Shown here piece by piece: positions 10,782 to 32,000 of a stretch of DNA of 32,000 bases. The notes beneath the pieces were generated by a model, which saw only the letters and a list, made by a program, of their open reading frames with translations, ran no database searches and had not been told where the DNA came from. This DNA is from Xylanibacter ruminicola 23 (GTDB lineage Bacteria; Bacteroidota; Bacteroidia; Bacteroidales; Bacteroidaceae), in contig NC_014033.1 of NCBI RefSeq assembly GCF_000025925.1, positions 1,290,001 through 1,322,000 on the forward strand, given 5' to 3'. Each line of letters opens with the position of its first letter. The stretch's first letter is position 1. The translations under genes were made by a program, and so were the position numbers.

Positions 10782-10819
10782 TCTATAATTTTGTTCCGTT
10801 GTTATCAGCGTTCAGGGTG

Positions 10820-10827
10820 CAAAATTA
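10820..10827 (-). promoter_or_regulatory. Bacteroidetes -7 promoter box (TAATTTTG) for the histidine kinase
   Basis: The reverse complement of caaaatta matches TAnnTTTG about 39 nt upstream of the ATG at 10781. Confidence 0.45.
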
Positions 10828-11119
10828 CTAAATAATGCTGACGTGGCAAAGTAATTTTAGAAGATTAACGCAAATCGGCCTTAAAATAAGGGCAATACGA
10901 ATAAGAATGGGGAATTTTGAAAAATGATGGTGTGCAAATTTGGGAGGATTGATGAAGGAGTTAGGTTGCCAAATCGTAACCCGTTTACGACCTCGTTGAC
11001 AGTTAAACTTTTCTAAATCCGTAGGGTGTAAAATCGCAGAATAACGAACTTCACTCCGATTGGTTTTCAATGACACGAACTGCATGGTTTTGCCGAAAAA
11101 GCGATTCGGAAATTGGTAT

Positions 11120-15673: not shown

Positions 15674-15678
15674 AGATA

Positions 15679-16713: not shown

Positions 16714-17311
16714 GGTTAATCTCTTTTTTCAGAGTTGTTACTATCTTTCGAATCCAGGCAGGTGCAAGTTGCAAATCCTTCTGCCATGTCTTTTCTTCGG
16801 GATGCTCTGTCAACAATTTGCGTATGATGCCGATATGTTCGTCTGTCAGGTCTTCTTTGCCAATAGCCTTCAGTGCCTGTACAAGAACGGGCATCAACTC
16901 ACCTTTATAGGCAAAGTTCTTGGGAACGCTACGCCTGAGCCGGATAGTACGATTCCCTAATTTGATCTCCCTTGCAGAGCCACTGGTTATGTACTCCGAA
17001 TTCATAGGTACTTGTGTTGACAGACCTAACAGATTCATGGCCGTGTTGCCTGTTGGCAGGATCTTGGCTTTGTCGCGTTTAGCGATAGCCTTTATGATGT
17101 CGCCCACAGGAGGAAAGACAACGCCAAACTTGCTCCGCATAGGCTTGACATAGATTCCGTAGGAGATTCGCGAAATCAGTTCCTGTCCACATAACTCAGA
17201 CAATATCTGTCTTACATAGACATCATCATAATTCGGGAAACTGTTGTTGAAAAACAGACTTCCGTCCTGACTTCTGTTAATCACATTTATAATATGCTCT
17301 TTTACTGTCAT
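16706..17311 (-). CDS. abiEi: AbiEi-family (DUF6088-like) antitoxin / transcriptional regulator
   Basis: The 201-aa product has an N-terminal wHTH-like region (VRQILSELCGQELISRISYGIYVKP) and GNTAMNLLGLSTQVP, as I recall for DUF6088/AbiEi proteins. It sits immediately upstream of AbiEii and overlaps it. Confidence 0.75.
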   Translation of the reverse strand: MTVKEHIINVINRSQDGSLFFNNSFPNYDDVYVRQILSELCGQELISRISYGIYVKPMRSKFGVVFPPVGDIIKAIAKRDKAKILPTGNTAMNLLGLSTQVPMNSEYITSGSAREIKLGNRTIRLRRSVPKNFAYKGELMPVLVQALKAIGKEDLTDEHIGIIRKLLTEHPEEKTWQKDLQLAPAWIRKIVTTLKKEINHE

Positions 17312-19080: not shown

Positions 19081-19127
19081 TCACAAAGGACATGGTACAC
19101 CTTTATTATATATAGAAGCCATTGAAG

Positions 19128-19298: not shown

Positions 19299-19360
19299 CC
19301 CAGAAAAACGGTCATCAGCGACAGCTTTGGCCATAGTAGTAACAATTAAACCAAAATCAA

Positions 19361-19888
19361 ATGACAGCAAAAAAGACCAAGAATGTGCCTCCGACAAAGG
19401 AAGAAGACGAGGCATTGAGAACCTTCATGTATGGTGACAGACTTCGCTCATCTATCAGCATGGAAGAACGCTACCCAGATCTTGAAGAGAGCGATAACTC
19501 CGCCATCTCCACTGACACTAATGCAGTGATTCCACCCCCTACAACAGAAGAAGCCCAAGGCCAAGAAACTTCACCAAAGAATGAACAAGAGGAAGAACCA
19601 GAGCCGAAGCCTGTTTCTTTTCCTGCTGGTAAGCAGTCACCTGCCCACCGTGTCAGCAGCAAGCAGCGTAGACTTTCACTCGATGAGTATGGCACCGTCT
19701 TTCTCCCTGTACCCAAGATTGACCACCCAAAGCCCGTGTTCATCAGCGAGTCACTACGCGACGAACTTGACAAGGTGGCACGTAGGCTCGGAGGCAAGCG
19801 GATGAGTGCATCAGGCATCGTAGAGAACATGGTCAAGCACCACTTAGGCATCTATGGGGAGGATATGGAACAATGGTTTAAACTGTGA
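19361..19888 (+). CDS. DUF3408-like protein of Bacteroides mobile elements (disordered acidic N-terminus, RHH-like C-terminus)
   Basis: The C-terminal LSLDEYGTVFLPVPKIDHPKPVFISESLRDELDKVARRLGGKRMSASGIVENMVKHHLGIY matches my memory of DUF3408 proteins found next to mob genes. Confidence 0.65.
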   Translation: MTAKKTKNVPPTKEEDEALRTFMYGDRLRSSISMEERYPDLEESDNSAISTDTNAVIPPPTTEEAQGQETSPKNEQEEEPEPKPVSFPAGKQSPAHRVSSKQRRLSLDEYGTVFLPVPKIDHPKPVFISESLRDELDKVARRLGGKRMSASGIVENMVKHHLGIYGEDMEQWFKL

Positions 19889-19966
19889 GCGATAAGACTG
19901 GAGTCTGTGACCAGACAGGCGTGGTTTGACACCGAAGGTGGCACAATCGTCTGGAAACTACGTTTT

Positions 19967-20019
19967 GAGTGCGGCGAGGTTATGTTTTCGGCATCCCGAA
20001 AACGACCTCGCCCGCACTC
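19967..20019 (+). other. long interrupted hairpin, candidate oriT
   Basis: GAGTGCGGCGAGGT ... ACCTCGCCCGCACTC form a 14-bp outer stem with a one-C bulge. They enclose a perfect GTTTTCGG-CATC-CCGAAAAC inner hairpin. The structure lies 77 nt upstream of the MobC-type gene and is followed by CAGTC repeats. Confidence 0.45.
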
Positions 20020-20095
20020 CCGTTGCGAGGGAAATCCGCTCCCCACTGGTCGCAGATTCAGTCAGTCCAGTCACTAAAGTGAATACACTGAAGCA

Positions 20096-20485
20096 ATGAT
20101 AATTACAGGCACTCAAAACACGAAGAAGCACGGAGGCAGACCGACAGTTGCTGAAGCAAGACGGTTGACAAGGGCAGTCACGGTCAAGTTCTCCAAGAAG
20201 GATTACGAAATCCTGAAAGTCAGGAGCAAGAAGGCAAATAAACACATGGCCGAGTACATCCGAGACTCTACCCTAAACCCTGATGTAGCACAGAAGCCTT
20301 TAGAGGCGGTAACAAAGGACTACCGTATGCTTGTAGGCATGGCGAACAACCTCAACCAACTCACGAAGATGGCTCACCAAGAAGGAATCATATATCTGTA
20401 TGTTCCGTTAAACAGTCTGCTGGGTGACATCAGCCATATCGTAAGAGAGTATAAACAGGACGCCGACAAAAAGAGAAAAAGATGA
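20096..20485 (+). CDS. MobC-family relaxosome accessory protein (called MobA in Bacteroides mob operons)
   Basis: YRMLVGMANNLNQLTKMAHQEG is the NLNQ(I/L) motif of the bacterial mobilisation protein MobC family. The N-terminus is RHH-like. Its stop overlaps the relaxase start by 4 nt (ATGA). Confidence 0.8.
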   Translation: MIITGTQNTKKHGGRPTVAEARRLTRAVTVKFSKKDYEILKVRSKKANKHMAEYIRDSTLNPDVAQKPLEAVTKDYRMLVGMANNLNQLTKMAHQEGIIYLYVPLNSLLGDISHIVREYKQDADKKRKR

Positions 20486-21468
20486 TAGGAAAGATTATGA
20501 AGGCTGCATCGTTCAAGCGGTGCGTCCAATACGTGACAGGCAAGGAAGATGCGAAAATCCTTGCCTCCGACGGTGTGTTGCTGATGTCAACGCAGGACAT
20601 CATTGACAGCTTTGAGTTCCAGCGGCAGTTGAATCCCAGGATCTCCAAACCCGTAGGCCATATCGCTCTGAGCTTTCTGCCAAAGGACAAGGACAAACTG
20701 ACAGACGAGATGATGGCCCGGATAGCAATGGAATATATGGAACTGATGGGCATCAAGGACACTCAGTTTATCCTTGTCCGCCACTTTGATAATGGCAATC
20801 CCCACTGCCATCTGGTCTATAACCGTATCAACAACGAGGGCAAGACCATCTCAGACCAGAACGATTTTAGACGGAACGAACAGGTGACGAAACTGCTTAA
20901 ACGGAAGTACGGACTCACTTTTTCCAATGGCAAGGGAACCACTAAAACCGAGCGATTAAGAGGAAATGAAAAGACGAGATACGAGGTTTATCACATTATT
21001 ATGAACACACTGGCACAGGCCACTTCATGGCGAGAATTCACAGATGAACTAAAGCGAAACGGTGTTACGATGGACATTGTGATGAAGAAAGATGGAAGTA
21101 CTAAGATTGCCGACATACAGGGTCTTCGCGTCACCAAAGACGGTAAGGCCTTCAAGGCTTCGCAGATTCGAAGAGGAATGACATACACAAAGATGGACAA
21201 TATTCTGAAGAGGAATGCACATAAGGAACAGGATACCAAAGCCTCTTGTCAGCAGCAGACAGGCCAAAGCGAACAACCCAGGCAAGCACAAAGACCAGAA
21301 CAAAAAGAACATCATGAAGAGTCTCAGCAGCACTCTTCCAGTTCATCCATTCCTATTCCATCATTGGGATTGTTCGATACAACTAATCCTGTCTATGACC
21401 CAGAAGATGAAGCCTTTCGTCGCCAGATGCAGCGTAAGAAAAAGAAGACGAGTCAATTAAAATTGTAG
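20482..21468 (+). CDS. relaxase / mobilization nuclease
   Basis: VGHIALSF near the N-terminus and the His-triad-like RHFDNGNPHCHLVYNRI are typical of the relaxase/mobilisation nuclease domain. The C-terminal tail is Q/S/E-rich and low-complexity. Confidence 0.88.
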   Translation: MIGKIMKAASFKRCVQYVTGKEDAKILASDGVLLMSTQDIIDSFEFQRQLNPRISKPVGHIALSFLPKDKDKLTDEMMARIAMEYMELMGIKDTQFILVRHFDNGNPHCHLVYNRINNEGKTISDQNDFRRNEQVTKLLKRKYGLTFSNGKGTTKTERLRGNEKTRYEVYHIIMNTLAQATSWREFTDELKRNGVTMDIVMKKDGSTKIADIQGLRVTKDGKAFKASQIRRGMTYTKMDNILKRNAHKEQDTKASCQQQTGQSEQPRQAQRPEQKEHHEESQQHSSSSSIPIPSLGLFDTTNPVYDPEDEAFRRQMQRKKKKTSQLKL

Positions 21469-21618: not shown

Positions 21619-23682
21619 TTACAATTTCCCTTTTAATATAGCACTCTCACTACCAACAGAATTGTACCTGTATGAACGAGTTACCTTTTTCCCATATTCA
21701 AATGTATATACTACTTTTATTGATGCATTTTGATTATATGTTTGATTATTGTTTGAATATGAAAAAGAATATACATCAGACACCGCAGAGCTAGTTACCT
21801 CTCGATGCATAAAGAATAGATTATTTATATTTGTTTTCAAAGAAAGCATTTTATAGTCCCATCCTATCGTTATTGAATATTGCCATGGAATCTTCTGGAT
21901 GATTTGGTTGTTAACAATCTGTTTTTGAGGAGTATTCACTACGAAAGATGCGTACAAGTCTTTTCTTGACACGTCTACTTGAAAGTTGCTCCACAATGTA
22001 TGCACACTTTCACTGACATCACCTGCCAATTTCGTATGTTTATAGCCTCCGTTTATTTTTATATTAATTTTAGTTGATGGTTTGTAAACAGCAGATAAAT
22101 CAAGTGAAGTCCGTTGATATCTGTTTTCGCTGGAAAAAGTATTAATGAGGTTGTCTCCATCGTAATGATAAACATTGGCAATTGCGTGATTTATATAATA
22201 GTATTGGAAGTTTGAGGAAAAAGACATATTGTCGAGACTCCAGTTGTAACTAATTCTAGGCATCAGAAGGATGCTGTTGTCCATTTTCGGATTCCCACGA
22301 CGAATCATAATACGATCTATCCGCTGTTCCGCATTATTTATTGTATTGGGACTAGGATATGTATTCCCTAATGCTAATGATAATTGCAATCTTTTTTTCT
22401 TGCTAATCATATATGCACCCATCAAATTAAGTCGAGGAGTTAAATGGCTTATAGATGGGCTTCCTGACAATTGATATGTCATATAAGAAAGTCCTGGATG
22501 AATATTTAATAGTATATTTCCATATATTCTTTTAGAATAATCAGCAAATAAAATTGTTTCAGAGGAATATAGATGCTGTTTCCTATTTTCACTTAATTCA
22601 TAAGCAATTTGACTATTTCTAAAATATTCATGCAAGCTGAATGTTATACTGCTCTTATCTTTCAGTGAGATACTGTAATTCGCATTAATTTTGGTATATA
22701 AATAGTCCTCTGAAGCATTTGACTGGAATGTGTAGTCCAATTCATCATAGTACCTTTCGTATTTACGCTTTGAATAGTAACCGTCAAGAACCACATCTAT
22801 ATGTCTAGAATCAGAAATATCTTTTGAATAATATAAATATGTCGTCGGTTTAACGTATCTCTCATTTTCTTTTTTTAAAAATCTTGCGGATGGGTATGTA
22901 GAAGAGTAAGAAATAAAGCCTTCATTGGTATCTTTACCTGTTTTTTGGCGTTCGATGCCAGCCCTTATCATCCACATCTGCTTTTTATCAATTTTGCTGA
23001 TACTTGCAATCCCATACAAGTTTTCCAGACGATTATTTAGAGAGTAACTGCTATTCTTGATTAAGTTTCCTGTTTTGAAATTTACATATCTTTCAGCCTC
23101 TTCATCATTGTCATTTAAACCACAAACATTGTATCCGCCCCATACATTAATATTATAATTGTTGAAAGAGTATTTTGAAACAAGATTGTAATCACCAATA
23201 AGATAGCCAATGCCTTGTTTACCTTCCAGCAAAGTATATCCTCCAGACGTAGGTTCTTTTAAAACAAAATTTATGGATGAGGCATCGATAGAATATTTTC
23301 CTGAAGGAGAATCAAAATACTCTATCTTTGCAACTTCTTTAGGTCGTAACGATTCTATCTCACGATAAGTAGCTTTACGTCCATTTATGTAGAGTGTTGC
23401 TTGCCCTGCTGGTGTAACAACTTCTCCTTTCTGATAATCAACAGACACATTCGGTATCATCATCCGATATAACAAGTCAAAACCACTATGTGTATGTTTA
23501 CGTTGTAACTCTGTTGGAATGCATATGATATGGTCATCTTCTAACACCAAATTATTTCCTTTAACAACGATTTCTTGTAACTGAATAATATGATTAATAG
23601 AATCATTGCCTGTTGTTTGCTGCTGTGCAGTTGCTGAATTTGTAGATAATAATGTTACAAATAATACTATAATATGTCTCAT
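21619..23682 (-). CDS. outer-membrane plug/beta-barrel protein (TonB-dependent-receptor-like, OMP_b-brl_3-like)
   Basis: Signal peptide MRHIIVLFVTLLSTNSATAQ. Plug-like LQEIVVKGNN ... ATLYINGRKATYREIESLRPKEVAKIEYF. A long region rich in Y, N and S with alternating hydrophobicity suggests beta strands. Its start overlaps the stop of the rSAM gene by 1 nt (TAATG). Confidence 0.7.
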   Translation of the reverse strand: MRHIIVLFVTLLSTNSATAQQQTTGNDSINHIIQLQEIVVKGNNLVLEDDHIICIPTELQRKHTHSGFDLLYRMMIPNVSVDYQKGEVVTPAGQATLYINGRKATYREIESLRPKEVAKIEYFDSPSGKYSIDASSINFVLKEPTSGGYTLLEGKQGIGYLIGDYNLVSKYSFNNYNINVWGGYNVCGLNDNDEEAERYVNFKTGNLIKNSSYSLNNRLENLYGIASISKIDKKQMWMIRAGIERQKTGKDTNEGFISYSSTYPSARFLKKENERYVKPTTYLYYSKDISDSRHIDVVLDGYYSKRKYERYYDELDYTFQSNASEDYLYTKINANYSISLKDKSSITFSLHEYFRNSQIAYELSENRKQHLYSSETILFADYSKRIYGNILLNIHPGLSYMTYQLSGSPSISHLTPRLNLMGAYMISKKKRLQLSLALGNTYPSPNTINNAEQRIDRIMIRRGNPKMDNSILLMPRISYNWSLDNMSFSSNFQYYYINHAIANVYHYDGDNLINTFSSENRYQRTSLDLSAVYKPSTKINIKINGGYKHTKLAGDVSESVHTLWSNFQVDVSRKDLYASFVVNTPQKQIVNNQIIQKIPWQYSITIGWDYKMLSLKTNINNLFFMHREVTSSAVSDVYSFSYSNNNQTYNQNASIKVVYTFEYGKKVTRSYRYNSVGSESAILKGKL

Positions 23683-24965
23683 TATTCCTTCTTAATTTGA
23701 TCCTCTGTATGCTTTATTATAAGTTCTTTTATGTATGCTTCACGTTTCGAGCAATAATCCTCTAAAAAAGAGTCTGCCGAGAAAATTCTCTTAAACGGAC
23801 ATCCTCCATCGCATATTGGGAAACAAAAACACTTTTTACATTTATCAGATTCCAAAGGGTCATTTGCTAAAAGATATTTTAAGCAAAGACTATTTAAATT
23901 TGAAAAATCAGAAATGTTGCCTATCTCTTTATCTTGTAATCCTATGTCATTCCAACATTTATAGAGTTCTCCAGATGGACCAATTACAAAACTATTCAAG
24001 TGTCTTGCGCTACATTCTCCAAATGAAGGCTTAGGATATAATGATATTGGGATACCATACAAATCATGTTGTTTAATTACGAAATTGCCCCTATCAGAAA
24101 AATCCATACAATTGCAATTGGCTTTTGAGGAAAAATCATCCGTAACATAGCCAGGGTGTATGTTTATCTTATAGTCATGGTATCTTCCTGTCATGAAATT
24201 ATACAGTTTATGGTATTCCTCAGAATTGGACTTGTCTATATTAACTCTTAACGCAACTCTGACATCAGGATACTTGAAGAACAAATTATCTATATTGTGA
24301 ACGATTCTCTTATAGCTGTCTGCATTTTTGTAATGGGGACGGCGTTTATTGTGAACTTGCTCTAATCCGTCTATGGTGATTTGCAATCCCATTATCTTTA
24401 GATGTTTCAGTTTTGAAATTTTCTCATCGTCAAGGAGATACCCATTGGTTATCATAAAGGCTTGATAATTAGGATACTCTTGCATAAACATCTTTGACAA
24501 CCTTTCAATAAATCCAAACTTCAGAAGAGGTTCCCCTCCATACCATGTAACTCTCAGATAATTTGTCTTCTTGAAAATTTTAGTAAACTTAATGATACTA
24601 TTTGCCATCTTTTCTTCGTCCAATACATTTTTACTTTTAATACCGGACTCATAACAATAAGAGCATCTAAAGTTACATGCAGTAGTAGGTGCGATTGTTA
24701 AGGATAAATAGTTCTTGTCATATCTTGCTAATGTCCTTTCCAATTTGATACGATTGTAGATGTTTATATCATTGTCGATGACAACATATTGCTTTTTCAA
24801 TTCTTCAAGAAAAGGCGACGCGACATCTGCAAATTCACCTTTTGCACAAGACTCTAATCTGTACTTGTCGTCAATATCAAAGCGCATCAGATTGTTTGTG
24901 TATGAATTATATAAGTAAATGTTACTACCTAATTCAAAAAGATAATTATATATTGACCAAATCAT
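23682..24965 (-). CDS. radical SAM/SPASM-domain peptide maturase
   Basis: APTTACNFRCSYCYE (CxxxCxxC). WYGGEPLL. SPASM signatures GELYKCWND and CKKCFCFPICDGGC (Cx2Cx5Cx3C). About 95 aa precede the cluster (LYNSYTNNLMRFD), as expected for a peptide-recognition region. It lies directly downstream of a Cys-rich precursor gene. Confidence 0.88.
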   Translation of the reverse strand: MIWSIYNYLFELGSNIYLYNSYTNNLMRFDIDDKYRLESCAKGEFADVASPFLEELKKQYVVIDNDINIYNRIKLERTLARYDKNYLSLTIAPTTACNFRCSYCYESGIKSKNVLDEEKMANSIIKFTKIFKKTNYLRVTWYGGEPLLKFGFIERLSKMFMQEYPNYQAFMITNGYLLDDEKISKLKHLKIMGLQITIDGLEQVHNKRRPHYKNADSYKRIVHNIDNLFFKYPDVRVALRVNIDKSNSEEYHKLYNFMTGRYHDYKINIHPGYVTDDFSSKANCNCMDFSDRGNFVIKQHDLYGIPISLYPKPSFGECSARHLNSFVIGPSGELYKCWNDIGLQDKEIGNISDFSNLNSLCLKYLLANDPLESDKCKKCFCFPICDGGCPFKRIFSADSFLEDYCSKREAYIKELIIKHTEDQIKKE

Positions 24966-24989
24966 ACTTATATTTATTTCTGTTAATGT

Positions 24990-25036
24990 AAAAAAGAGGA
25001 AGCGTTAGGCAAATGCGTCGCCCAACGCGACCTCCT
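24990..25036 (-). terminator. hairpin plus U-run between precursor-1 and the rSAM gene (attenuator/partial terminator)
   Basis: On the minus strand, GCGTTGGGC ... GCCTAACGC form a 9-bp stem with one G-U pair. An outer GGAG/CTCC segment extends the stem, and TTTT follows. This arrangement resembles known RiPP operons that over-express the precursor. Confidence 0.5.
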
Positions 25037-25041
25037 AATGT

Positions 25042-25233
25042 TTAAGCCATATTGCCTTTGCAAGTACAGTCAGGATTACAATTCCAAGCATCGCAATCAC
25101 TCCAAGGATCGCAGTATTGCCGAAGTTCTTCTACTCTGTCTCCTCCAACAATGCCACCTAAAGCAGCATTCGTTAGACGATTTTCAAATGTAACATGTGC
25201 GTTACTTTTCTCAACGAAATCAATCTTTTTCAT
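25042..25233 (-). CDS. RiPP precursor peptide 1: double-glycine leader, Cys/Trp/Asp-rich core
   Basis: MKKIDFVEKSNAHVTFENRLTNAALGGIVGG | DRVEELRQYCDPWSDCDAWNCNPDCTCKGNMA. There are two GG motifs and five Cys in the last 23 residues. It lies 76 nt upstream of the rSAM/SPASM gene on the same strand. Confidence 0.75.
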   Translation of the reverse strand: MKKIDFVEKSNAHVTFENRLTNAALGGIVGGDRVEELRQYCDPWSDCDAWNCNPDCTCKGNMA

Positions 25234-25295
25234 CTTATTGAAGTTGAATTAATAAATTACATTATGGTGAAGCATTTTAAGTCATAACACCACGA

Positions 25296-25321
25296 TGACC
25301 CATATTTTGTGCACTAATATG
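25296..25321 (-). promoter_or_regulatory. conserved 26-nt element (copy 1) with palindrome CATATT-n-GTGCAC-n-AATATG upstream of precursor-1
   Basis: TGACCCATATTTTGTGCACTAATATG (plus strand) is identical to 29020-29045. It sits 62 nt upstream of the precursor ATG and 2 nt after the stop of the preceding gene. Confidence 0.6.
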
Positions 25322-25323
25322 CT

Positions 25324-27816
25324 TTATATGTTAAACAGTATTCTGCATAAGAAATCCCTTGGCCTCATCTGGTTTAGGACGATGATGTCGGTATAGTCGG
25401 TGGTGTAGTGACGGCGGTAGTTGCGTGTGCCGAAGAGGTTAGAGCATAAAAGTCCTGCCTCGAAGGTCTTGGCGCGATAGGATATGGAGAGATCGCTGAA
25501 ATAATTGGTAGAAACGGATTTATCGTTACTATGATAGAGTTCATTCGTCCATTCTATCTGCCATTTGCCTGGCAATATGAACACTTTTAACTCATGGTTC
25601 CACGATTGAAGTGCATTTGTCATCGACTGGTGGCTGTAGTGGTAAGCAGACTCTTCCTCTATGGAGAGCCAGCGAGTAGGCTTCAATGAGAACCGCAGCG
25701 AGGCTCTACCGTTGCGGGTATGCTGACGAGCAAGAGAGTGATTGATCAGCAGGTCGTAATTGGTCCATGAGTAACTTCCGTTCAGTGTTATACTGAGCTT
25801 TGCCCAAAAGATGGATTTTCCCAAACTGCCAGAAAGGCTATAGGTCTCACGGTTCTGACGGAAATCGGTAGCCTGACGAATATAGACATTATTCACAAGA
25901 TGACTCTGATAGATAACGGCATCACGCAGATTGCTGTAACCAGATGTGAATCTACTGAACATACCTGTCATCACATTACGATAGCCTAATCCTATATTTG
26001 CCGTTTGTCCCGTGGTGTTTTCAAACTGTCCTGAGCCTTGCTGACAAGAGATGTAATCGGTGTAATAAGGCTGACAGGTGATAGTGGTGATGTCGCTGGG
26101 AGTCCATCGGTAACTGTAACTGCCGCTGATCTCAAGTTTGGAAGTCAGACTGTAGCGGATGAAAAGGCGCGGCTCGGCAAGGAAATTCTGGCTGTTCTTC
26201 TTCTGATACTGACGCATGAGCCAACTAAGCCGCCCGTTCAGGCTGATGGTCCATGCTCCTTCACGATAACTGATTGACGGCTCCACGTATGGCAGGTATT
26301 CACTGTAGCGGTCTTTGTTGTTCAGTGTCAGCCACTGCGTTTTTGTTTCAAAACCTGCCTGCCATGTCACTTTTAACTGCTTGATGCTGTGTTGATAATA
26401 GGCGTATGCATTCCAATATAGCATTTGTTGAGTGATTTGCTGAGTGCTGTCATTGGTTAGAAGTAACGTGCCTGGCAGATAACTGTAACTAAACAATGAG
26501 GTGACGGAATAACTTTGCCCATTCTTCAGTTTATTGATGAGTTCGAGGTTATCCACGATGTATCGTTTGCGAGGCTCAACCCATTGAGGCGTCGGGCGTT
26601 CGTTTAATATTGAAAGTCCCTCATTCTTGTTAAAGTCAATATAGCCTTTTAGTGTGTTCGACAGATATTGTTTATCGTGGTTTGCCTTATAGAGCAGTTC
26701 TGCCTGCCATTCGCTACGGGTACTTGTTGCTGTCTGTTCCTCAGTGATAATGGCAGAGTCGGCATCCAGATAGACGGTCTGCCTGTCCTGTTGCTGTCGG
26801 CTCCGGTCATAAAGCCCTGTCACTTGCAGTTTCAGATCATCGTCCTTTTTCGTCTTGAACAGCCAGTTGGTGGCGGCAATATAGGTATCATTGAACTTGC
26901 TCCTTCTCGCATCGAGACTTGGTGCCCCCAGATTAATATTGTTCAATATACCATCCTCTGTAGGAGCAGTCTTGTCGAACTGCGTCAAATCGGCAACTTC
27001 GTGCTCAATATCCTTGCCAGTATTGTTGGCCTTTACCATCGAAATGCTCTGCTTTTTGCGTCCAAATACCATCTCCAGCCATTGAGCATCGCGCAACCAG
27101 TCGTCGCCATAACCTGTAGCCACATCTATCACACCCTGCCATACATTCTTAGCTTCGTCTTTCAGTACCAGATTGAGTGCAGCCTGTTCAGAGAACTTTA
27201 TATCTTTGAGAACTTTCACGGGTTGATGATTCTCATATACCTGTACGCTCTTCACTTTGTCAGCTGAAAGGTTTTCACTCGCCATCGCATACTTACCACC
27301 CAGCAAGTCCATTCCTTCTATATAGAACTTGTTGATAGCCTTGCCCTGATACCTGATAGTACCTGATGGGAGAACTTCCAATCCCGGCATTTTAGCTATT
27401 ACATCGGCTATCGAACGGTCCTGTTTCAGTTTAAAGGATTCTACGGAATAGGTCAGCGTGTCGCCTTGCTCGCGGATGCGCTGTGGCGTTACTTTCACTT
27501 CCTTTAAGGCAATGGCCTGTTCTTGCATCTTGATGGTCTGGCCATTCTTATAATCTTTCAGCGGAATCACCACCTTGCCAAAGCCCATCATCAGAAACTC
27601 AACACTCTTCGCCTCTTTCCCTTGCGGAATGGTCAACGAGAAATGTCCATCCTGCCTAGCCCTTGCAAATGCAACGACAGAGCCGCCATCCCCTTTTGCC
27701 ACGACGGAGGCAGACACAAGCGGTTTCCCACTCTTGTCCGTCACCCGCCCTGTGAAGGTCTGCGCTTTACCAGTGAGAGAGACTAATATAATAAGGTATA
27801 GCAGCAAACGCTTCAT
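25324..27816 (-). CDS. outer-membrane plug/beta-barrel protein with N-terminal carboxypeptidase-regulatory-like domain
   Basis: Signal peptide. FTGRVTDKSGKPLVSASVVAKGDG is CarboxypepD_reg-like. Plug-like LKEVKVTPQR...IADVIAKMPGLEV...IRYQGKAINKFYIEG. Followed by about 600 aa of barrel-like sequence. Its start overlaps the GLPGLI gene stop by 4 nt. Confidence 0.75.
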   Translation of the reverse strand: MKRLLLYLIILVSLTGKAQTFTGRVTDKSGKPLVSASVVAKGDGGSVVAFARARQDGHFSLTIPQGKEAKSVEFLMMGFGKVVIPLKDYKNGQTIKMQEQAIALKEVKVTPQRIREQGDTLTYSVESFKLKQDRSIADVIAKMPGLEVLPSGTIRYQGKAINKFYIEGMDLLGGKYAMASENLSADKVKSVQVYENHQPVKVLKDIKFSEQAALNLVLKDEAKNVWQGVIDVATGYGDDWLRDAQWLEMVFGRKKQSISMVKANNTGKDIEHEVADLTQFDKTAPTEDGILNNINLGAPSLDARRSKFNDTYIAATNWLFKTKKDDDLKLQVTGLYDRSRQQQDRQTVYLDADSAIITEEQTATSTRSEWQAELLYKANHDKQYLSNTLKGYIDFNKNEGLSILNERPTPQWVEPRKRYIVDNLELINKLKNGQSYSVTSLFSYSYLPGTLLLTNDSTQQITQQMLYWNAYAYYQHSIKQLKVTWQAGFETKTQWLTLNNKDRYSEYLPYVEPSISYREGAWTISLNGRLSWLMRQYQKKNSQNFLAEPRLFIRYSLTSKLEISGSYSYRWTPSDITTITCQPYYTDYISCQQGSGQFENTTGQTANIGLGYRNVMTGMFSRFTSGYSNLRDAVIYQSHLVNNVYIRQATDFRQNRETYSLSGSLGKSIFWAKLSITLNGSYSWTNYDLLINHSLARQHTRNGRASLRFSLKPTRWLSIEEESAYHYSHQSMTNALQSWNHELKVFILPGKWQIEWTNELYHSNDKSVSTNYFSDLSISYRAKTFEAGLLCSNLFGTRNYRRHYTTDYTDIIVLNQMRPRDFLCRILFNI

Positions 27817-28691
27817 TTTTTCTTTTTAGTAGAACTTTTCTTCTGCGGATATTTCTTCTTGACATTAACACCTGGGAACTTCTCGTAGAGGATACGTGTC
27901 TTGGGAACTATCTTAACTTCATTTCCCTGAGGATCCCACATCCTTGTTACCTGCCCCGACATTCCTGTCATTTGAGAAAAATGAGCAGAAGGATCCCAAT
28001 ACTCCAACATCATAATTTCAGCAACACGTTCTGGCATATATGTGTCAATGACACCTGATTTCGGTGTCTTCATTTTAATATCATGCCCATCACCTTTCTC
28101 TATACCGATACAATTGAAACGGAAACAGCCTTCTGAATCAGATGCGTATAGTATCAAACCCGGCAAGCCGCAAAATTTCCACGGACCATCACTATATGGC
28201 AAGCCAAGTGTGTACCATACCGTCCATGTTCTACCTCTGAATGTGGTAATAGCTTTGTGGCAAGTATATTCGCATACAATGGTATCACCCTCTTGGAGTT
28301 GCCAATCAAACAGCCCATCAATCTTATCGCGACAAGAAATCCAGCCAGGCATGTGAACAAATTGCATATAGCCACTTTTGGGGGTGTTTTTAAACACTTC
28401 ATCCCGCATAGAAGCATAACCAACATAAGGATTCTTAACCCTTTTGCTAACAACGTCACTTTTGTTTTTTGCCAGGAACTCGCCAATAACACTGACAAAT
28501 TGCGATGAATTTTCCCCAATATCCAAACGCATCAAGTCTTTCTCCTGTTTGGGTTCTTCCTCAAACTTTTGATAATAAACATCATAAGTCACTGATAGAA
28601 TAGTAGAATTACTTGCATGACTATTCATCATTATCAGATATGAAGGAATAGTCATTTTTAATATAATGTTAAAAAAAGGATTCATACGCAT
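27813..28691 (-). CDS. GLPGLI family protein (Bacteroidetes-specific, function unknown)
   Basis: Contains the eponymous motif in FCGLPGLILYA, plus the family-typical N-terminal VTYDVYY...MRLDIGENSSQFVS pattern. It has a Lys-rich C-terminal tail. The N-terminus lacks a convincing signal peptide. Confidence 0.8.
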   Translation of the reverse strand: MRMNPFFNIILKMTIPSYLIMMNSHASNSTILSVTYDVYYQKFEEEPKQEKDLMRLDIGENSSQFVSVIGEFLAKNKSDVVSKRVKNPYVGYASMRDEVFKNTPKSGYMQFVHMPGWISCRDKIDGLFDWQLQEGDTIVCEYTCHKAITTFRGRTWTVWYTLGLPYSDGPWKFCGLPGLILYASDSEGCFRFNCIGIEKGDGHDIKMKTPKSGVIDTYMPERVAEIMMLEYWDPSAHFSQMTGMSGQVTRMWDPQGNEVKIVPKTRILYEKFPGVNVKKKYPQKKSSTKKKK

Positions 28692-28705
28692 ACAATCGCC
28701 TCTTT

Positions 28706-28742
28706 AATGAGAGTATGCCAACTAAATAGGCATACTCTCATT
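28706..28742 (-). other. perfect 14-bp hairpin immediately after precursor-2 (no U-run; RNA stabiliser/processing or attenuator)
   Basis: AATGAGAGTATGCC (28706-28719) pairs perfectly with GGCATACTCTCATT (28729-28742) around a 9-nt loop. It lies between the precursor-2 stop (28746) and the GLPGLI start (28691). Confidence 0.5.
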
Positions 28743-28745
28743 TGT

Positions 28746-28949
28746 TTAACAGGTAATAAATGCCCAATCGCCATAAGCATCATTTAAAACCTCAACAGCA
28801 TCATCAACAGATACAGCTGATTCCATTACAATCTCTTTGGACCAGCCGCTTTCAACGTCAAGGACAACGCATTTGATTTTTCTTCCACCATTCACATTGT
28901 TCATCTGAGCCTTGCTCATTTTGAACATTTCTAAATTTGTTTTGTTCAT
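28746..28949 (-). CDS. GG-leader exported peptide 2 (bacteriocin-type signal sequence, acidic 45-aa core)
   Basis: MNKTNLEMFKMSKAQMNNVNGG | RKIKCVVLDVESGWSKEIVMESAVSVDDAVEVLNDAYGDWAFITC. The leader fits the Bacteroidetes L-x-x-F-x-x-SK-x-x-M-x-x-(I/V)-x-GG pattern. It sits directly downstream of ABC/HlyD exporter genes. Confidence 0.7.
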   Translation of the reverse strand: MNKTNLEMFKMSKAQMNNVNGGRKIKCVVLDVESGWSKEIVMESAVSVDDAVEVLNDAYGDWAFITC

Positions 28950-29019
28950 CTTGAAAAAAAATTAATTAAACTTAATTTGTTAACTCTCATAGGTGAAAAT
29001 TAAGGTCATATCACCAAAT

Positions 29020-29045
29020 TGACCCATATTTTGTGCACTAATATG
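29020..29045 (-). promoter_or_regulatory. conserved 26-nt element (copy 2) upstream of precursor-2
   Basis: Identical to 25296-25321. It sits 70 nt upstream of the precursor-2 ATG and directly abuts the HlyD stop codon. Flanking sequence is also similar (GGTGAA...TAAG(G)TCATA(A/T)CACCA). Confidence 0.6.
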
Positions 29046-30338
29046 TTAATTACGAAGATTCCTATGGAACAGATACTTGAGAGGTCCTATTATCCTTTCT
29101 GCTACACTAAGGTCATCGGTGATAATCTCCCCAACTCCAGAAAGGTCGCCAGTCTGACGAATTGCCTTGCCGTATGATGTCGTTTGGCTATTCTGTAGTT
29201 CAAAGGTCGCTGTATAGATGTCCTCATCGGGCATCAGTGCAACAGAAGTTATACACCCAGTCAGAAAACCATACTCCAAATAGGGATAACCATCTAGTTG
29301 AATATTGACCCGCTGACCTATCTTTACCTTGCCAGAACCTGCAACAGGAATCTTTGCCTTGCCTATTGATTGTTCCTTGCTGCTGCTGATAACGGAAAAC
29401 GCCTTGTCGCTGGAAGTGATGTTCTGGTTTATCTTCCACAGGTTGTTATATGACACGAATCCTTCTATAGGACTCTGAAGCAGATATGTCTGTTTCCACT
29501 CTCTAATAGCCGTCCTTGTGCCCTCCCATGCTGACCAAAGTATAGTCTCCTGCTGTTGTCGTTCCTGTTCTTTTTGCAGCTTCAGTTCTGAGATGGTGTT
29601 ATATATTTGTGCCATTTGGATTTTGGCATTAGCCAACGATGAGCGTATCTGTTCGGCAGACATATTACTGCTAAGTAAGGATTGTTCGGTAGATTCCAAG
29701 TCAGAAGTGGAAGTTAGTCCTTTGTCGTGGAGAGTCTTTTCCCGTTGATAGTTTTCGTTACTTAGGAATTTTATACGTTGGCTATAGCAAACCAGTTTCT
29801 CAATGGATTCTACATATTCCGAGTAAGGCCTTAGCTGTGCTTCCTCTGCGGCAATGCGCTGGTCATAGAGATTCTTATTCACAAAATTATTATAATCAGT
29901 GATTGCCTTGGCTAATGTCGTATAAGTACTCTGGATACTGCCGAGATGTGCATCATCAAGATGGAGGTTTATTCCTTCTCCATTTTCGAACAGTACGGAC
30001 AATATGGAGTCAAGTTTCAGCACATCCTGAGTATTGGCAGGATTTTCTATCACCGCTATCACATCACCAGCATTGACATGTTGTCCGTCTTGGGCGTACA
30101 ACTCTTGCAATCTGCCAGATGTTTTAGCCACAATCCATACAGGCGGCTCTGTTTTTGTGATTGTAACAGTGCAGGTAATCGTATCTGGGTATTTAAATAT
30201 AAAGCATCCGATGAACAGAACCAGCAATATACCGCCAATCACTGACGAGCCAACGCTCAGCAGTGTATGGGGAGGTGTTGACAGGATCTCCTGTACGTCC
30301 TCACTTCTTATAATACTATCCTTATTTCTCTTGGGCAT
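29046..30338 (-). CDS. HlyD-family membrane fusion / secretion accessory protein
   Basis: One N-terminal TM segment (VIGGILLVLFIGCFIF). Lipoyl-like AGDVIAVIE. A long coiled-coil middle. A beta-rich C-terminus. It starts 6 nt after the ABC transporter gene on the same strand. Confidence 0.8.
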   Translation of the reverse strand: MPKRNKDSIIRSEDVQEILSTPPHTLLSVGSSVIGGILLVLFIGCFIFKYPDTITCTVTITKTEPPVWIVAKTSGRLQELYAQDGQHVNAGDVIAVIENPANTQDVLKLDSILSVLFENGEGINLHLDDAHLGSIQSTYTTLAKAITDYNNFVNKNLYDQRIAAEEAQLRPYSEYVESIEKLVCYSQRIKFLSNENYQREKTLHDKGLTSTSDLESTEQSLLSSNMSAEQIRSSLANAKIQMAQIYNTISELKLQKEQERQQQETILWSAWEGTRTAIREWKQTYLLQSPIEGFVSYNNLWKINQNITSSDKAFSVISSSKEQSIGKAKIPVAGSGKVKIGQRVNIQLDGYPYLEYGFLTGCITSVALMPDEDIYTATFELQNSQTTSYGKAIRQTGDLSGVGEIITDDLSVAERIIGPLKYLFHRNLRN

Positions 30339-30344
30339 CGTGCA

Positions 30345-32000
30345 TTATACATTTAATTGGTTCTTGACTAAAGTGTAATATACCCCATGACGGCAAATCA
30401 GTTCTTCGTGGGTGCCCTGCTCGCAAATCTTTCCTCCTTGTAGCACCACGATTTTATCGGCATCTCTCACTGTGCTCAGACGATGGGCGATGACTATAGC
30501 TGTCCTGCCTTGCATAAAACGGTTGAGCTTTTCCATTATCAGGTACTCGTTATTGGCATCAAGCGAGTTTGTGGCCTCATCCATAAAGATGAACTCAGGA
30601 TTCTTATAGACGGCGCGAGCTATAAGGATACGCTGTTTTTGGCCCATGCTTAGTCCATGGCCCTCAGCTCCTATCTTTGTATTATAGCCTAATGGCAAAT
30701 CCTCGATGAAATCTCTGATGTTGGCTGTTTCTGCTGCTTCACGCATTCTGTCTTCATCAATCCGCTCTTCTCCTGGGGCGATATTTCGGGCTATAGTGTC
30801 TGAGAAGATGAATCCGTCCTGCATCACTGTACCGCAGTGCTTACGCCACTCCCGTTTGTCATAGTTGGCAATATCCGAACAGCCCAACACTACTTTCCCC
30901 TTGTCTGGTTCATAGAAACCTAATATCATCTTAAGCAGTGTGGTTTTTCCGCTGCCACTAAGACCTACTATGGCAGTTGTCTTACCTTTAGGAATTGCCA
31001 GGTTTATGTCATCAAGTGTAGGCACCTCGTTGAGTTTGTCGTATCTGAATGTCAGATGTTCTATCCTAATGTCTGCATTCTTGATATCTGTAATCTTGGT
31101 CTTGCCTGCAGGGCGTTCGTCGTCTCTGTTATAGATTTCCTGTAGTCGGTCTAAACTCAATTTGGCATCCTGATATTGACGGACAAAACCTATCAGTTGG
31201 TCAACAGGACTATTCAATTGTCCAATGATATATTGGATGGAAAGCATCATGCCAAGAGTGATGTTTCCTTTTATAACCAATGCCGCAACAAGGGCTGTAA
31301 TAATAGCATTTTTCATCTGATTTATCAACACGCCACCCGACTGCTGGTATTGTGACAGGGCTAGCCCTTTGACGGTAATCCTGTATTTTCGAGCCTGTAT
31401 ATGCTCCCATTCCCAGCGTTTCTGCTGTTCGCAGGCATTTAGTTTGATTTCCTGCATGCCACTCACCAGTTGCACCATATTACTTTGATTGGCCGAATTT
31501 TGTGCAAACATCTTATGGTCGAGAACAGCCCTCCGTTTCATGAAACCCCATACCCAGGCAATATATAAGCCACTACCGATAAAGAATATAAAGAATATCA
31601 TCCAGTTATAGAATAGGATGACCAGTCCAAAAATGATGATGTTGACAATGGAGAAGAGTGTTGACAGACTGGTACTGGTCAAAAACTCTTGTATTCTAGT
31701 ATGATCATTGATGCGCTGAAGAATGTCGCCCGTCATCTTCGTGTCAAAATAGGCGATGGATAGGCGCATTAGTTTGGCCAGATAGTCAGATATCAGCGAG
31801 ATATTCACCCTCATGCCGATATGAAGCAATATCCAGCCTCGGATAAACTCCACAGATGTGCTACTGATAACGAGCACCATTTGGGCTATCAGCACTAAAT
31901 AAATATAGCCTAAATTCTGATTGGTAATACCGAAGTCAACGATAGACTGTGTGAGAAATGGCAGGATAAGCTGTATCAACGAGCCTGTAGCTAATCCGAT
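30345..32000 (-). CDS. ABC transporter permease/ATPase, bacteriocin-exporter type; N-terminus (probable C39 peptidase domain) outside the window
   Basis: The frame stays open to nt 32000 (IGLATGS precedes the listed Met). TM domain followed by Walker A GLSGSGKTT, signature LSMGQKQR, Walker B FIFMDEATNSLD and H-loop IAHRLS. The visible part is about 551 aa. Exporters of this class are about 700+ aa with an N-terminal C39 domain. Confidence 0.85.
   Translation of the reverse strand: MGLATGSLIQLILPFLTQSIVDFGITNQNLGYIYLVLIAQMVLVISSTSVEFIRGWILLHIGMRVNISLISDYLAKLMRLSIAYFDTKMTGDILQRINDHTRIQEFLTSTSLSTLFSIVNIIIFGLVILFYNWMIFFIFFIGSGLYIAWVWGFMKRRAVLDHKMFAQNSANQSNMVQLVSGMQEIKLNACEQQKRWEWEHIQARKYRITVKGLALSQYQQSGGVLINQMKNAIITALVAALVIKGNITLGMMLSIQYIIGQLNSPVDQLIGFVRQYQDAKLSLDRLQEIYNRDDERPAGKTKITDIKNADIRIEHLTFRYDKLNEVPTLDDINLAIPKGKTTAIVGLSGSGKTTLLKMILGFYEPDKGKVVLGCSDIANYDKREWRKHCGTVMQDGFIFSDTIARNIAPGEERIDEDRMREAAETANIRDFIEDLPLGYNTKIGAEGHGLSMGQKQRILIARAVYKNPEFIFMDEATNSLDANNEYLIMEKLNRFMQGRTAIVIAHRLSTVRDADKIVVLQGGKICEQGTHEELICRHGVYYTLVKNQLNV

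Follow-up and report, generated by a model that had tools for sequence, protein, structure and literature searches.

The 32,000-nucleotide stretch of Xylanibacter ruminicola 23 (formerly Prevotella ruminicola) analysed here, the whole of which is called the window below, carries a locus for two unrelated precursor peptides, pep1 and pep2. Each precursor has its own maturation (a radical SAM (rSAM)/SPASM enzyme for pep1 and an oxidase for pep2), both share one leader-peptidase exporter, and one protein with the fold of a TonB-dependent transporter (TBDT) is specifically linked to each precursor family. The eight genes of the locus together with three genes beyond the window make up one operon on a mobile element. 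The parts are of known kinds, i.e., a peptidase-containing ATP-binding cassette (ABC) transporter (PCAT), an HlyD protein, an rSAM/SPASM-modified ribosomally synthesized, post-translationally modified peptide (RiPP), a disulfide-containing double-glycine (GG) peptide, the TBDT fold and an integrative mobilizable element. The pairing of each peptide with its own TBDT-like outer-membrane protein, on the other hand, appears to be undescribed. In the literature no description was found of a dedicated TBDT gene behind each precursor, of an obligate pair of a GLPGLI-family protein and a TBDT, or of the link of this pair to a tetratricopeptide repeat (TPR)-transmembrane regulator, and nothing was found on 'Clo7bot', on TBDT and RiPP in Bacteroidetes, or on TBDT and PCAT. 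A paper on RiPP mining in Bacteroidales reports unspecified 'OMP' genes in some clusters, for which a TolC-like export role was assumed (PMC10352776). The reading favoured here, with a probability of about 0.4, is that the peptides are secreted, retrieved through the TBDTs and sensed. The peptide chemistry, the TonB dependence, the direction of transport, the link between regulator and operator and the signalling role are all inferred.

Layout of the Locus

Gene coordinates are based on a list of open reading frames (ORFs) for 19–32 kb of the window, and the window proteins were searched with Pfam and NCBIfam profiles, matches being listed at E ≤ 0.01. Eight minus-strand ORFs, all co-directional, occupy positions 21619–32000. 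In the direction of transcription they are:

30345..32000, minus strand: PCAT, C-terminal 551 aa of a 733-aa protein (ABC_membrane, ABC_tran)
29046..30338, minus strand: HlyD-family membrane-fusion protein (HlyD_3 E 1e-12, Biotin_lipoyl_2)
28746..28949, minus strand: pep2, 67-aa precursor with double-glycine leader; predicted 45-aa core with two conserved Cys, one near each end
27813..28691, minus strand: GLPGLI-family protein, 292 aa, predicted periplasmic partner of TBDT-2 (TIGR01200 137.1 bits, cut-off 50)
25324..27816, minus strand: TBDT-2, 830 aa; predicted CarboxypepD_reg sandwich, TonB-box-like LKEVKV, plug and barrel
25042..25233, minus strand: pep1, 63-aa precursor with double-glycine leader; predicted 32-aa core with 5 Cys, CxPWSDCDAWxCxPDCxCK
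23682..24965, minus strand: rSAM/SPASM peptide maturase for pep1, 427 aa (Radical_SAM PF04055 E 4e-16; TIGR04085)
21619..23682, minus strand: TBDT-1, 687 aa; predicted plug and barrel of about 22 strands, LxExVV TonB-box-like motif

The ABC and HlyD genes are 6 nt apart, and spacers of 96 nt (HlyD/pep2) and 90 nt (TBDT-2/pep1) precede the two precursor genes. The GLPGLI and TBDT-2 genes overlap by 4 nt and the rSAM and TBDT-1 genes by 1 nt, and by these overlaps both TBDT genes are translationally coupled to the genes upstream of them. The eight genes, their coordinates and every one of these gaps, spacers and overlaps agree with an original prediction made from the DNA alone, which had described a two-cassette peptide locus with one shared C39-type ABC/HlyD pair. 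This description holds, as the C39 domain was found beyond the window. The points on which it could be checked by computation, the synteny of the barrel genes with the precursor genes and the peptidase domain of the ABC protein, both came out in its favour. The whole operon would be transcribed in the order regulator with TPR, transmembrane and helix-turn-helix (HTH) parts, 121-aa secreted protein, VKOR-thioredoxin protein, PCAT, HlyD, a shared intergenic element, pep2, GLPGLI, TBDT-2, the element again, pep1, rSAM/SPASM and TBDT-1. The first three of these genes and the N-terminal part of the PCAT gene lie beyond the window end.

The TBDT Fold of the Two Outer-Membrane Proteins

Both large proteins are predicted to have the TBDT fold, with a conserved TonB-box-like motif in front of the plug. 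Neither of them gave a Pfam or NCBIfam match at E ≤ 0.01 to Plug (PF07715), TonB_dep_Rec_b-barrel (PF00593) or OMP_b-brl_3 (PF14905), the last of which had been suggested at the outset as one of the profiles to try, and the 687-aa protein had no family match at all in the profile searches. Their barrel nature is therefore shown by structure prediction. AlphaFold2 models, made from alignments of 28 (barrel-1) and 29 (barrel-2) homologues, reached a mean predicted local distance difference test score (pLDDT) of 71 for TBDT-1 and 80 for TBDT-2, and in each a plug-like domain at the N-terminus is followed by a barrel of about 22 strands. For TBDT-2 the plug region was modelled at low confidence; in this model a CarboxypepD_reg sandwich, for which the Pfam match is weak, precedes the plug. 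Among the best 50 matches listed per model in Foldseek comparisons with the PDB all were TBDTs, with probability 1.0 and E-values of ~1e-14 for TBDT-1 and ~1e-11 for TBDT-2, and they include ChuA, PirA, Cir, FyuA, BtuB, ZnuD and OprC as well as PDB 9NN6, i.e., Cir with microcin V. The motif just before the plug is LQEIVVKG in the barrel-1 family, with L35, E37, V39, and V40 invariant, and LKEVKVTP in the barrel-2 family, with V107 invariant and E106 and V109 near-invariant; both transporters may depend on TonB.

The structures and the Foldseek comparisons thus agree with the earlier view of both proteins as plugged outer-membrane barrels. As to their kind, the part of that view that saw outer-membrane barrels with a plug stands, while a TolC-like or generic type gives way to a predicted TBDT fold. 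A receptor encoded in the chromosomal flank (window 6153–8318) matches Plug, TonB_dep_Rec_b-barrel and OMP_b-brl_3 and is an internal contrast to the divergent TBDT-1 and TBDT-2. It was also considered that barrel-1 and barrel-2 are recent duplicates of each other. This was rejected, the profile-profile relation being weak (72% probability over 183 columns).

Cassette 1: pep1, rSAM/SPASM, and TBDT-1

The predicted pep1 core has a net charge of -4 and a pI of 4.1. The precursor had no NCBIfam match at E ≤ 0.01 and no family match in the profile searches. Its neighbour matches Radical_SAM and, with 56.4 bits, the SPASM model TIGR04085 (cut-off 27), and its CX3CX2C motif reads CNFRCSYC, all in line with the rSAM/SPASM assignment made before. 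The best specific models were Clo7bot (209.8 bits), TIGR04463 (203.9 bits), and CefB (189 bits), which lie below the curated cut-offs of 600, 525, and 600 bits, respectively, so that the enzyme is no member of these equivalogs; one public source labels the protein 'Clo7bot peptide maturase'. The original prediction had further named a GG-Bacteroidales family for enzyme and precursor. No such match was obtained for pep1 or, among its 25 best models (down to E 1.3e-13), for the rSAM protein; TIGR04148 and TIGR04149, whose presence in the NCBIfam release is unconfirmed, were absent from these. By their scores the nearest models belong to a thioether/ranthipeptide-like clade. Like the ranthipeptide/SCIFF-type RiPPs (PapB, CteB, Clo7bot, CefB, TIGR04463), which give the best model matches, cassette 1 combines a Cys-rich core with an rSAM/SPASM gene; unlike them it stays far below the cut-offs of the specific models (210 bits vs. 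600) and has a TBDT gene at its end. It is likely that pep1 and its SPASM enzyme make a ranthipeptide-like RiPP of a family outside the curated models, and by analogy the core is probably thioether-bridged by the enzyme. In a rumen survey ranthipeptide clusters were almost absent from Bacteroidota (PMC13289728).

To survey the distribution of the family, the core motif PWSDCDAW was back-translated and searched for in a single genome of each species, which gave six Bacteroidota loci with pep1-family genes. Seven further matches, in non-Bacteroidota or in non-coding contexts, were discarded as chance. The synteny of the barrel with its precursor that had been proposed is seen in five of the six species-level loci, where barrel-1 follows the rSAM gene; it does so directly in L024, L028, L029, and L031 and also in L012–L014. 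Three of these (L024, L028, and L031) are four-gene clusters of PCAT, pep1, rSAM and TBDT without HlyD in between and without a TPR regulator. L012–L014 are from other Prevotella and lie in housekeeping neighbourhoods with no exporter nearby; they encode a 61–70-aa peptide, an rSAM/SPASM protein (57% identity) and then a 690-aa barrel homologue (44% identity). The leaders of the pep1 family end in GG, and the core CxPWSDCDAWxCxPDCxCK is common to L012, L014, L020, L024, L028, L029, and L031. Cassette 1 thus looks like an independent module that recurs with only a peptidase-ABC exporter or without exporter. In the operon studied here it is a separately acquired add-on, since GC content steps from 0.33 in cassette 1 (window 21619–25000) to 0.43–0.47 in cassette 2 and the exporter (25000–32000) and the cassette is absent from L017 and L018, the closest relatives of cassette 2.

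Two of the loci depart from the common pattern. L020 (4338–8000), from a distant member of the Bacteroidales, has two pep1-family paralogues, one with a different and Cys-poorer core, and after the rSAM gene encodes a secreted protein of another kind (449 aa plus) in place of the TBDT. In L028 (5737–8001) the rSAM and TBDT genes form one open frame of >754 codons; the contig is binned as Lachnospiraceae while its content is Prevotella-like, and the merged frame probably goes back to an error of sequencing or binning or to the loss of a stop codon. More remote relatives of barrel-1 (42% identity), in Prevotella histicola, lack peptide and rSAM genes; their neighbours are small lipoproteins and a further TBDT-like protein.

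Cassette 2: pep2, GLPGLI, and TBDT-2

No family match was found for pep2 in the Pfam and NCBIfam searches. An alignment of the family from 10 loci shows that the cores keep a stretch ESGVSxDDAVxxLNxAYGxW and the two terminal-proximal Cys; the core has a net charge of -5 (pI 4.2), and those of the relatives range from -5 to -8. Together with PCAT and HlyD, pep2-family genes were found only in a subset of Prevotella, i.e., in L017/L018, L032, L043, L044 (three paralogues), L045, and L051. The GLPGLI and barrel-2 genes follow pep2 in at least nine loci, again as the proposed synteny would have it. When the window is compared with L017 the identities are 82% for PCAT, 63% for HlyD, 54% for pep2, 48% for GLPGLI and 53% for the TBDT, and across loci PCAT remains 82–96% identical while pep2, GLPGLI and TBDT-2 fall jointly to ~50–77%. 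The parts that would see the mature core therewith seem to diverge with the core. Permutations of gene order keep the units together, as in L050 (GLPGLI, TBDT, PCAT, HlyD) and L051 (PCAT, HlyD, GLPGLI, TBDT).

The 292-aa protein was correctly placed in the GLPGLI family (TIGR01200/PF09697) by the earlier reading, has the motif CGLPGLILYA and carries a signal sequence without lipobox. In a profile comparison GLPGLI matched two solved structures, PNGase F-II in its N-terminal domain (PDB 4R4Z, E 5e-6) and a 'GLPGLI family protein' (7ZGN), neither of them with a function assigned to this part. The four papers found to name GLPGLI have it as a table entry only, and the literature on PNGase F-II gives no function for the GLPGLI-like domain. 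The family was noted in Porphyromonas gingivalis, and since then its name has to our knowledge stood without a function. The TBDT-2 family has >2300 detectable homologues. From the alignment of this family 80 metagenomic loci were fetched; of the 68 with enough sequence, 65 carry between one and seven GLPGLI genes in the 1 kb upstream of the TBDT-2 homologue, and the GLPGLI-TBDT pairing is obligate. Most of these loci are without any peptide or exporter. Where at least 5 kb of upstream sequence was available, exporter genes were present in 3 of 50 loci and homologues of the 591-aa regulator described below in 14 of 50, and the genes downstream of the TBDT in peptide-less loci are unrelated housekeeping genes. 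As the exporter is rare and the downstream genes are unrelated, the basic unit is taken to be an optional regulator, one or more GLPGLI genes and a TBDT, into which a peptide/exporter block was inserted. The proposal of one barrel per peptide is confirmed in that a TBDT is linked to each precursor family, and corrected for cassette 2, where GLPGLI and TBDT are a self-standing pair, mostly without peptide or exporter.

A metagenomic TBDT-2 relative, P0116 (1042 aa), joins a signal peptide, a GLPGLI domain, a TonB-box motif, a plug and a barrel in one chain, the GLPGLI domain being in place of CarboxypepD_reg; it comes from one small cluster only and may be an assembly artefact. Because the domain is fused N-terminal to the TonB box, and both barrel ends face the periplasm, GLPGLI would work on the periplasmic side. 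Two to seven diverged GLPGLI paralogues stand in tandem before a single TBDT in L052 (1433–10547) and also in L041, L053, L088, and L095, and such arrays look like diversification of cargo or of an immunity type. Small proteins with Sec signals, encoded just upstream of GLPGLI in the peptide-less modules of L068 (6860–7078, 72 aa) and L061 (8329–8571, 80 aa), resembled pep2 by eye but were dropped, as neither jackhmmer nor a hidden Markov model of the core alone gave support.

The recurrence of pep1/rSAM/TBDT-1 and of pep2/GLPGLI/TBDT-2 across loci makes synteny point to a specific link between TBDT and peptide. It is conceivable that the TBDT and GLPGLI proteins are instead ordinary uptake systems for an unrelated ligand, brought beside the peptide genes by mosaic assembly of cargo. 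This would suit the mostly peptide-less GLPGLI-TBDT module, the relatives in P. histicola, a cassette 1 that by its GC content is clearly a later addition and the split barrels of two decayed copies of the mobile element (L113 and L115). Such a coincidence is nevertheless very improbable given that the pep1 trio recurs with overlapping or abutting genes in contexts as unrelated as housekeeping regions (L012–14) and PCAT-led clusters (L024, L031), and that the pep2 set recurs down to 49% identity, even with changed gene order.

The tandem arrays bear on another reading, in which the peptides are microcin-like toxins and the GLPGLI proteins and TBDTs serve self-protection, either by binding and expelling re-entering toxin or because the TBDT is a form, insensitive to the toxin, of the receptor by which target cells are attacked. 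A precedent exists in Bacteroidales, where BSAP toxin genes adjoin resistant orthologues of the target outer-membrane protein. The arrays in L041, L052, and L088 resemble orphan immunity arrays, the mobile element also carries defence genes (TOTE, AbiE), no conventional small immunity gene was recognisable in profile searches of the operon proteins, and class II microcins use TBDTs as receptors (PMC12219008). Still, an extra resistant receptor would leave the sensitive chromosomal one in place, the two peptides carry a negative charge and are not known to be toxic, the conserved TonB-box-like motif favours an active transporter over a decoy, and producers of bacteroidetocins do without any immunity (PMC6671954). 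Self-protection is accordingly considered unlikely.

The Exporter and the Genes Upstream of It

Eight long contigs (L001–L008) with an identical HlyD contain the same block as the window, three further co-directional genes and then unrelated neighbours. From these contigs the PCAT was completed to its full 733 aa, next to an HlyD that is 100% identical to that of the window. The peptidase domain looked for beyond 32 kb is present (Peptidase_C39, PF03412, E 1.5e-31) and contains the motifs QHDAMDCGPTC and NHFVVL, and with these catalytic Cys and His motifs in place it looks active. The 551-aa window fragment, which is without the C39 domain, scores 344.5 bits against TIGR01193 (cut-off 523.85). 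The HlyD protein matches PF13437 with 49 bits (cut-off 22.2) and does not reach the curated type I secretion subfamily TIGR01843 (71 bits vs. a cut-off of 208.65); by profile score it is therefore an HlyD-family protein and not a member of that subfamily.

Upstream of PCAT a 121-aa secreted protein and a 434-aa VKOR protein with a thioredoxin domain (L004:6492–7796) are encoded. The latter probably closes the pep2 core by one disulfide. Its N-terminus has a weak Peptidase_C39 match (residues 7–88, E 0.0012) and may be a leader-binding C39-like domain on a disulfide oxidase.

The third gene encodes a protein of 591 aa that spans the membrane once. Its N-terminal part is exported and gave TPR matches in 13 of 18 homologues (best E 4e-8, TPR_MalT); it also has a coiled coil, and the last ~60 aa, at the C-terminus, are conserved. 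A single hhalign comparison of the C-terminal ~60 aa with a hand-assembled set of LuxR/GerE-type HTH sequences gave a probability of 82.7% and an E-value of 9.5e-6, and a C-terminal HTH is a lead only. In SusR, of a family restricted to Bacteroidetes, the ligand is bound in the periplasm and an HTH lies near the C terminus (PMC3878776). Likened by description, the 591-aa protein would have the same architecture.

Hairpins and a Shared Intergenic Element

Both precursor genes are followed by a hairpin and preceded by a copy of a shared element, the copies having been located by repeat and motif searches:

28706..28742, minus strand: 14-bp perfect hairpin after pep2, without U-run (dG -22.7 kcal/mol, z -6.5)
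24994..25036, minus strand: hairpin with U-run after pep1, terminator- or attenuator-like (dG -26 kcal/mol, z -4.9; terminator scan 25028–25002)
29000..29045, minus strand: shared element, copy 2, at the first base after the HlyD stop codon
25276..25321, minus strand: shared element, copy 1, upstream of pep1, candidate operator/promoter element

The hairpins, and the U-run after pep1, had been noticed by eye and were substantiated by folding against shuffles and by the terminator scan. The identical 26-nt palindromic element reported for both spacers is likewise real; it lies within a 46-nt repeat (87% identical), and the palindrome is imperfect, with outer arms CATATT/AATATG around GTGCAC. 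The 26-nt core, CATATTAGTGCACAAAATATGGGTCA, occurs twice in the window, where 0 occurrences are expected by chance. Eight other loci (L017, L018, L032, L034, L043, L044, L045, and L048) have the element as well; wherever in them a pep2-family gene comes after HlyD or before GLPGLI, the element lies upstream of it, and the pattern CATATT..GTGCAC..AATATGGGTCA..GGTG.T..GAC is kept across these loci. In the stand-alone cassettes it is not present upstream of pep1, where the region is different and contains a TAnnTTTG-like box, and the pep1 copy of the window is closer to the version upstream of the pep2-type gene in L017 than to the pep2 copy of the window. In L043 a second copy of the element is followed by an AAA-ATPase gene and then by a Redoxin-like gene that also comes after cassette 2 in L017 and L044; the element may mark a slot for the insertion or loss of further cassettes.

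It was considered whether the element is a structured RNA leader. Its folding was no better than that of shuffles (z -0.5 to -1.2), which makes a role at the DNA level more likely, and a permissive Rfam scan of 21–32 kb gave one match at chance level (STnc400, E 0.21). By eye there is no convincing fit to the Bacteroidetes -33/-7 promoter. The simplest reading is that the element acts as a site on the DNA through which the two precursors are controlled jointly, and the 591-aa regulator is the obvious candidate to bind it.

Possible Retrieval or Export Through the TBDTs

In the reading that is favoured here the shared PCAT/HlyD would remove the leaders and export both peptides. The hairpin after each precursor gene would keep the peptide mRNA in excess over that of the downstream genes, among them that for a cognate, peptide-specific TonB-gated transporter of the outer membrane. 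Each mature peptide would return to the periplasm through its own TBDT, pep2 with the help of the periplasmic GLPGLI partner, and the retrieved peptide would be sensed by the periplasmic TPR domain of the regulator. The regulator would then act on the palindromic element before both precursor genes, resulting in autoinduction or quorum sensing. Alternatively the peptide may be retrieved as a carrier of something bound.

Several observations speak for retrieval and sensing. First, both proteins combine a predicted TBDT fold with a conserved TonB-box-like motif; characterised TBDTs are reported to import, with Oar as the exception (PMC6434023), and class II microcins, the closest analogue in diderms, enter cells via TBDT and TonB (PMC12219008). 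The lipoproteins that flank barrel-1 relatives in oral Prevotella are, by analogy, a typical importer arrangement. Second, with HlyD present canonical one-step export needs no extra gate in the outer membrane, and the four-gene region of the bacteroidetocins (transmembrane protein, peptide, thiol oxidoreductase and PCAT) allowed toxin production in Escherichia coli without TBDT (PMC6671954). Third, one element is common to both precursors here and to pep2-family genes in eight other loci, and the recurrence of the regulator beside GLPGLI-TBDT seems to mirror the import-and-sense logic of SusC/SusR (PMC3878776). Finally, the predicted negative charge of both peptides is unlike that of membrane-active cationic bacteriocins.

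The same genes may be read in the opposite direction, with the TBDTs as the outer-membrane exit, i.e., an Oar-like substitute for TolC in which TonB opens the plug. PCAT, with or without HlyD, would deliver leaderless peptide to the periplasm, where pep2 would be oxidised by the VKOR-thioredoxin protein and handed by GLPGLI to TBDT-2; with a generic leader and a specific mature core each peptide would need its own gate. That the TBDTs, with GLPGLI as a periplasmic adaptor of the cassette-2 type, are a TonB-powered second export step is possible, if doubtful. Export would be in keeping with the coupling of the TBDT genes to their upstream genes and with the absence of a TolC gene from the mobile element in profile searches of its proteins. 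In Myxococcus xanthus the TBDT Oar is required for secretion of PopC (PMC6434023), and the study of bacteroidetocins leaves their passage through the outer membrane unexplained (PMC6671954). Oar is the one TBDT known to export, however, TolC is the usual docking partner of HlyD-type fusion proteins, the majority of GLPGLI-TBDT modules lie apart from any peptide or exporter, and the barrel-1 relatives pair with lipoproteins in an importer-like manner. Related peptide systems, also when placed in E. coli, secrete without a TBDT (PMC6671954).

Other findings speak against retrieval or weaken the regulatory part of the scheme. The minimal clusters of PCAT, pep1, rSAM and TBDT-1 (L024, L028, L031), which have neither HlyD nor a TolC gene, look like a complete make-and-export set. 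A periplasmic stage of pep2, as implied by the VKOR-thioredoxin enzyme of the operon, and a periplasmic GLPGLI, as placed by its position ahead of the TonB box and plug in P0116, fit loading as well as retrieval, and the rearrangements in L050 and L051 leave GLPGLI-TBDT contiguous with PCAT-HlyD, by analogy as in operons for ABC transporter, membrane-fusion protein and outer-membrane factor. The locus encodes no inner-membrane importer and no cytoplasmic receptor. The up to seven GLPGLI genes that precede one TBDT in L052 have the look of cargo or of immunity genes rather than that of a single binding partner. With respect to control, the regulator is within reach in only the 14 of 50 loci mentioned above, its HTH was not found by Pfam or by whole-protein or C-terminal PDB profile searches, and the second element copy of L043 (4924–4949) directly follows the TBDT gene without a peptide gene behind it.

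The Integrative Mobilizable Element

The peptide locus is cargo of an integrative mobilizable element of ~26 kb. In the window the element comprises, apart from the peptide operon:

10819..10840, strand not assigned: left end with the att-like core CAAAATTACTAAATAAT, which recurs as a direct repeat at the right end
11154..12383, plus strand: tyrosine integrase (Phage_integrase, Arm-DNA-bind_5, Phage_int_SAM_5)
12827..17311, minus strand: other cargo, i.e., TOTE archaeo-eukaryotic primase (AEP)/helicase, AbiEii toxin and DUF6088 (PF22548 E 5e-99; PF08843 E 1e-31; PF19570 E 2e-46)
19361..21468, plus strand: mobilization module, i.e., DUF3408, NikA/MobC-like protein and MobA/VirD2 relaxase (PF11888, PF21983, PF03432)

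The similarity between L001–L008 breaks at L004 ~3826–3840 (~36.5 kb in window coordinates, outside the window), where the right-end core was mapped, and the sequence at this breakpoint is repeated just upstream of the integrase (window ~10819–10840). A breakpoint common to the copies and its repeat upstream of the integrase define the two ends and thereby the cargo. The chromosomal site of the element differs among the eight long contigs, and both metagenome assemblies and genomes of X. ruminicola supplied the copies that were examined. In the public assembly collection 802 blocks list the identical HlyD and 1654 blocks list pep1 in identical form. The DUF3408, NikA/MobC-like and relaxase genes (relaxase 20482–21468) adjoin the peptide locus in all copies examined. 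The TOTE conflict-system primase-helicase spans 12827–15673 and the AbiEii/DUF6088 pair 15679–17311, and the backbone to the left of the locus also encodes two HTH_17 proteins. Between these and DUF3408 lies 1.1 kb (window 18202–19360) without an ORF ≥ 90 aa, which may hold oriT or an RNA. The chromosomal flank includes an unrelated radical SAM protein (window 258–1364). Ten proteins encoded in the window and its extension, the chromosomal enolase among them, have fully identical counterparts in X. ruminicola.

The cargo is evidently not always maintained. One decayed copy (L113) has a split barrel-2 gene and a truncated GLPGLI, and another (L115) has a DDE transposase in place of the exporter region and a split barrel-1.

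Comparison With Known Systems and Implications

Judged by gene content and peptide, the pep2 arrangement would be closest to class II microcins (PMC12219008) and bacteroidetocins (PMC6671954). In the former, exemplified by microcin V, CvaC is exported by the PCAT CvaB, the HlyD-type membrane-fusion protein CvaA and TolC and is taken up via Cir/FhuA and TonB. Locus and class II microcins share a GG-leader peptide of a few kDa with disulfide Cys, a diderm host, export by C39-ABC and an HlyD-type protein, and TBDTs as the outer-membrane partners of the peptide (PMC12219008). They differ in that the TBDT of the microcins is a housekeeping receptor of the target cell, whereas here a dedicated TBDT gene for each precursor is part of the producer operon, and in that the present locus has no small immunity gene that could be seen, encodes a VKOR-thioredoxin oxidase of its own as well as another peptide, predicted to be rSAM-modified, and belongs to the phylum Bacteroidota. 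Bacteroidetocins, which are class IIf and target BamA (Coyne et al. 2019), are like pep2 GG-leader peptides of Bacteroidales (~42 aa) encoded with a thiol oxidoreductase and a peptidase-ABC (PMC6671954, PMC8546649). Compared by the description of peptide and locus, they contain 4 Cys vs. 2 in pep2, and their four-gene loci encode a protein with five transmembrane segments (5-TM) and no HlyD, GLPGLI or TBDT; the pep2 locus has no gene for a 5-TM protein, and its oxidoreductase is the VKOR membrane protein. The authors of the bacteroidetocin study state that Bacteroides is without general disulfide machinery and that the outer-membrane route of the peptide is unknown (PMC6671954).

A dedicated TBDT is known from other biosynthetic clusters. 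Those for methanobactins and siderophores carry one (MbnT) that takes the secreted product back up; the products are metal chelators, and the clusters also encode periplasmic and inner-membrane steps of uptake. In the present locus neither metal-binding chemistry nor an inner-membrane importer is evident. Oar, which carries an N-terminal CarboxypepD_reg-like domain, and SusC-like transporters, on which an N-terminal extension of the TBDT-2 kind is found, are further points of comparison. By description TBDT-2 is comparable to Oar, a TBDT that is needed to bring out a periplasmic substrate, but that substrate, PopC, is a large protease encoded elsewhere (PMC6434023). Sus loci, also by description, have a TBDT beside a regulator with periplasmic sensor, membrane span and C-terminal HTH (PMC3878776); here there is no SusD-like lipoprotein and no glycan enzyme, and the presumed ligand is the cell's own peptide.

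What sets the locus apart is that two unrelated peptides each have a specific TonB-type gate behind them, and it belongs to X. ruminicola 23, a type organism that is cultured and sequenced. The TBDT-2 family is the first concrete, testable partner for the GLPGLI family (TIGR01200). If the TBDTs import, it would be new that a peptide signal is sensed by way of a TonB-dependent receptor together with a TPR regulator on the periplasmic side. If they export, they would be the second case, after Oar, of TBDTs that work outwards and would constitute an unrecognised route of peptide secretion in Bacteroidota, which would give the scattered GLPGLI-TBDT pairs a function and answer how bacteroidetocin-like peptides can cross the outer membrane. 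A separate category would be warranted for the system should the TBDTs prove to be exporters, or receptors that pass peptide signals on to a sensor in the periplasm.

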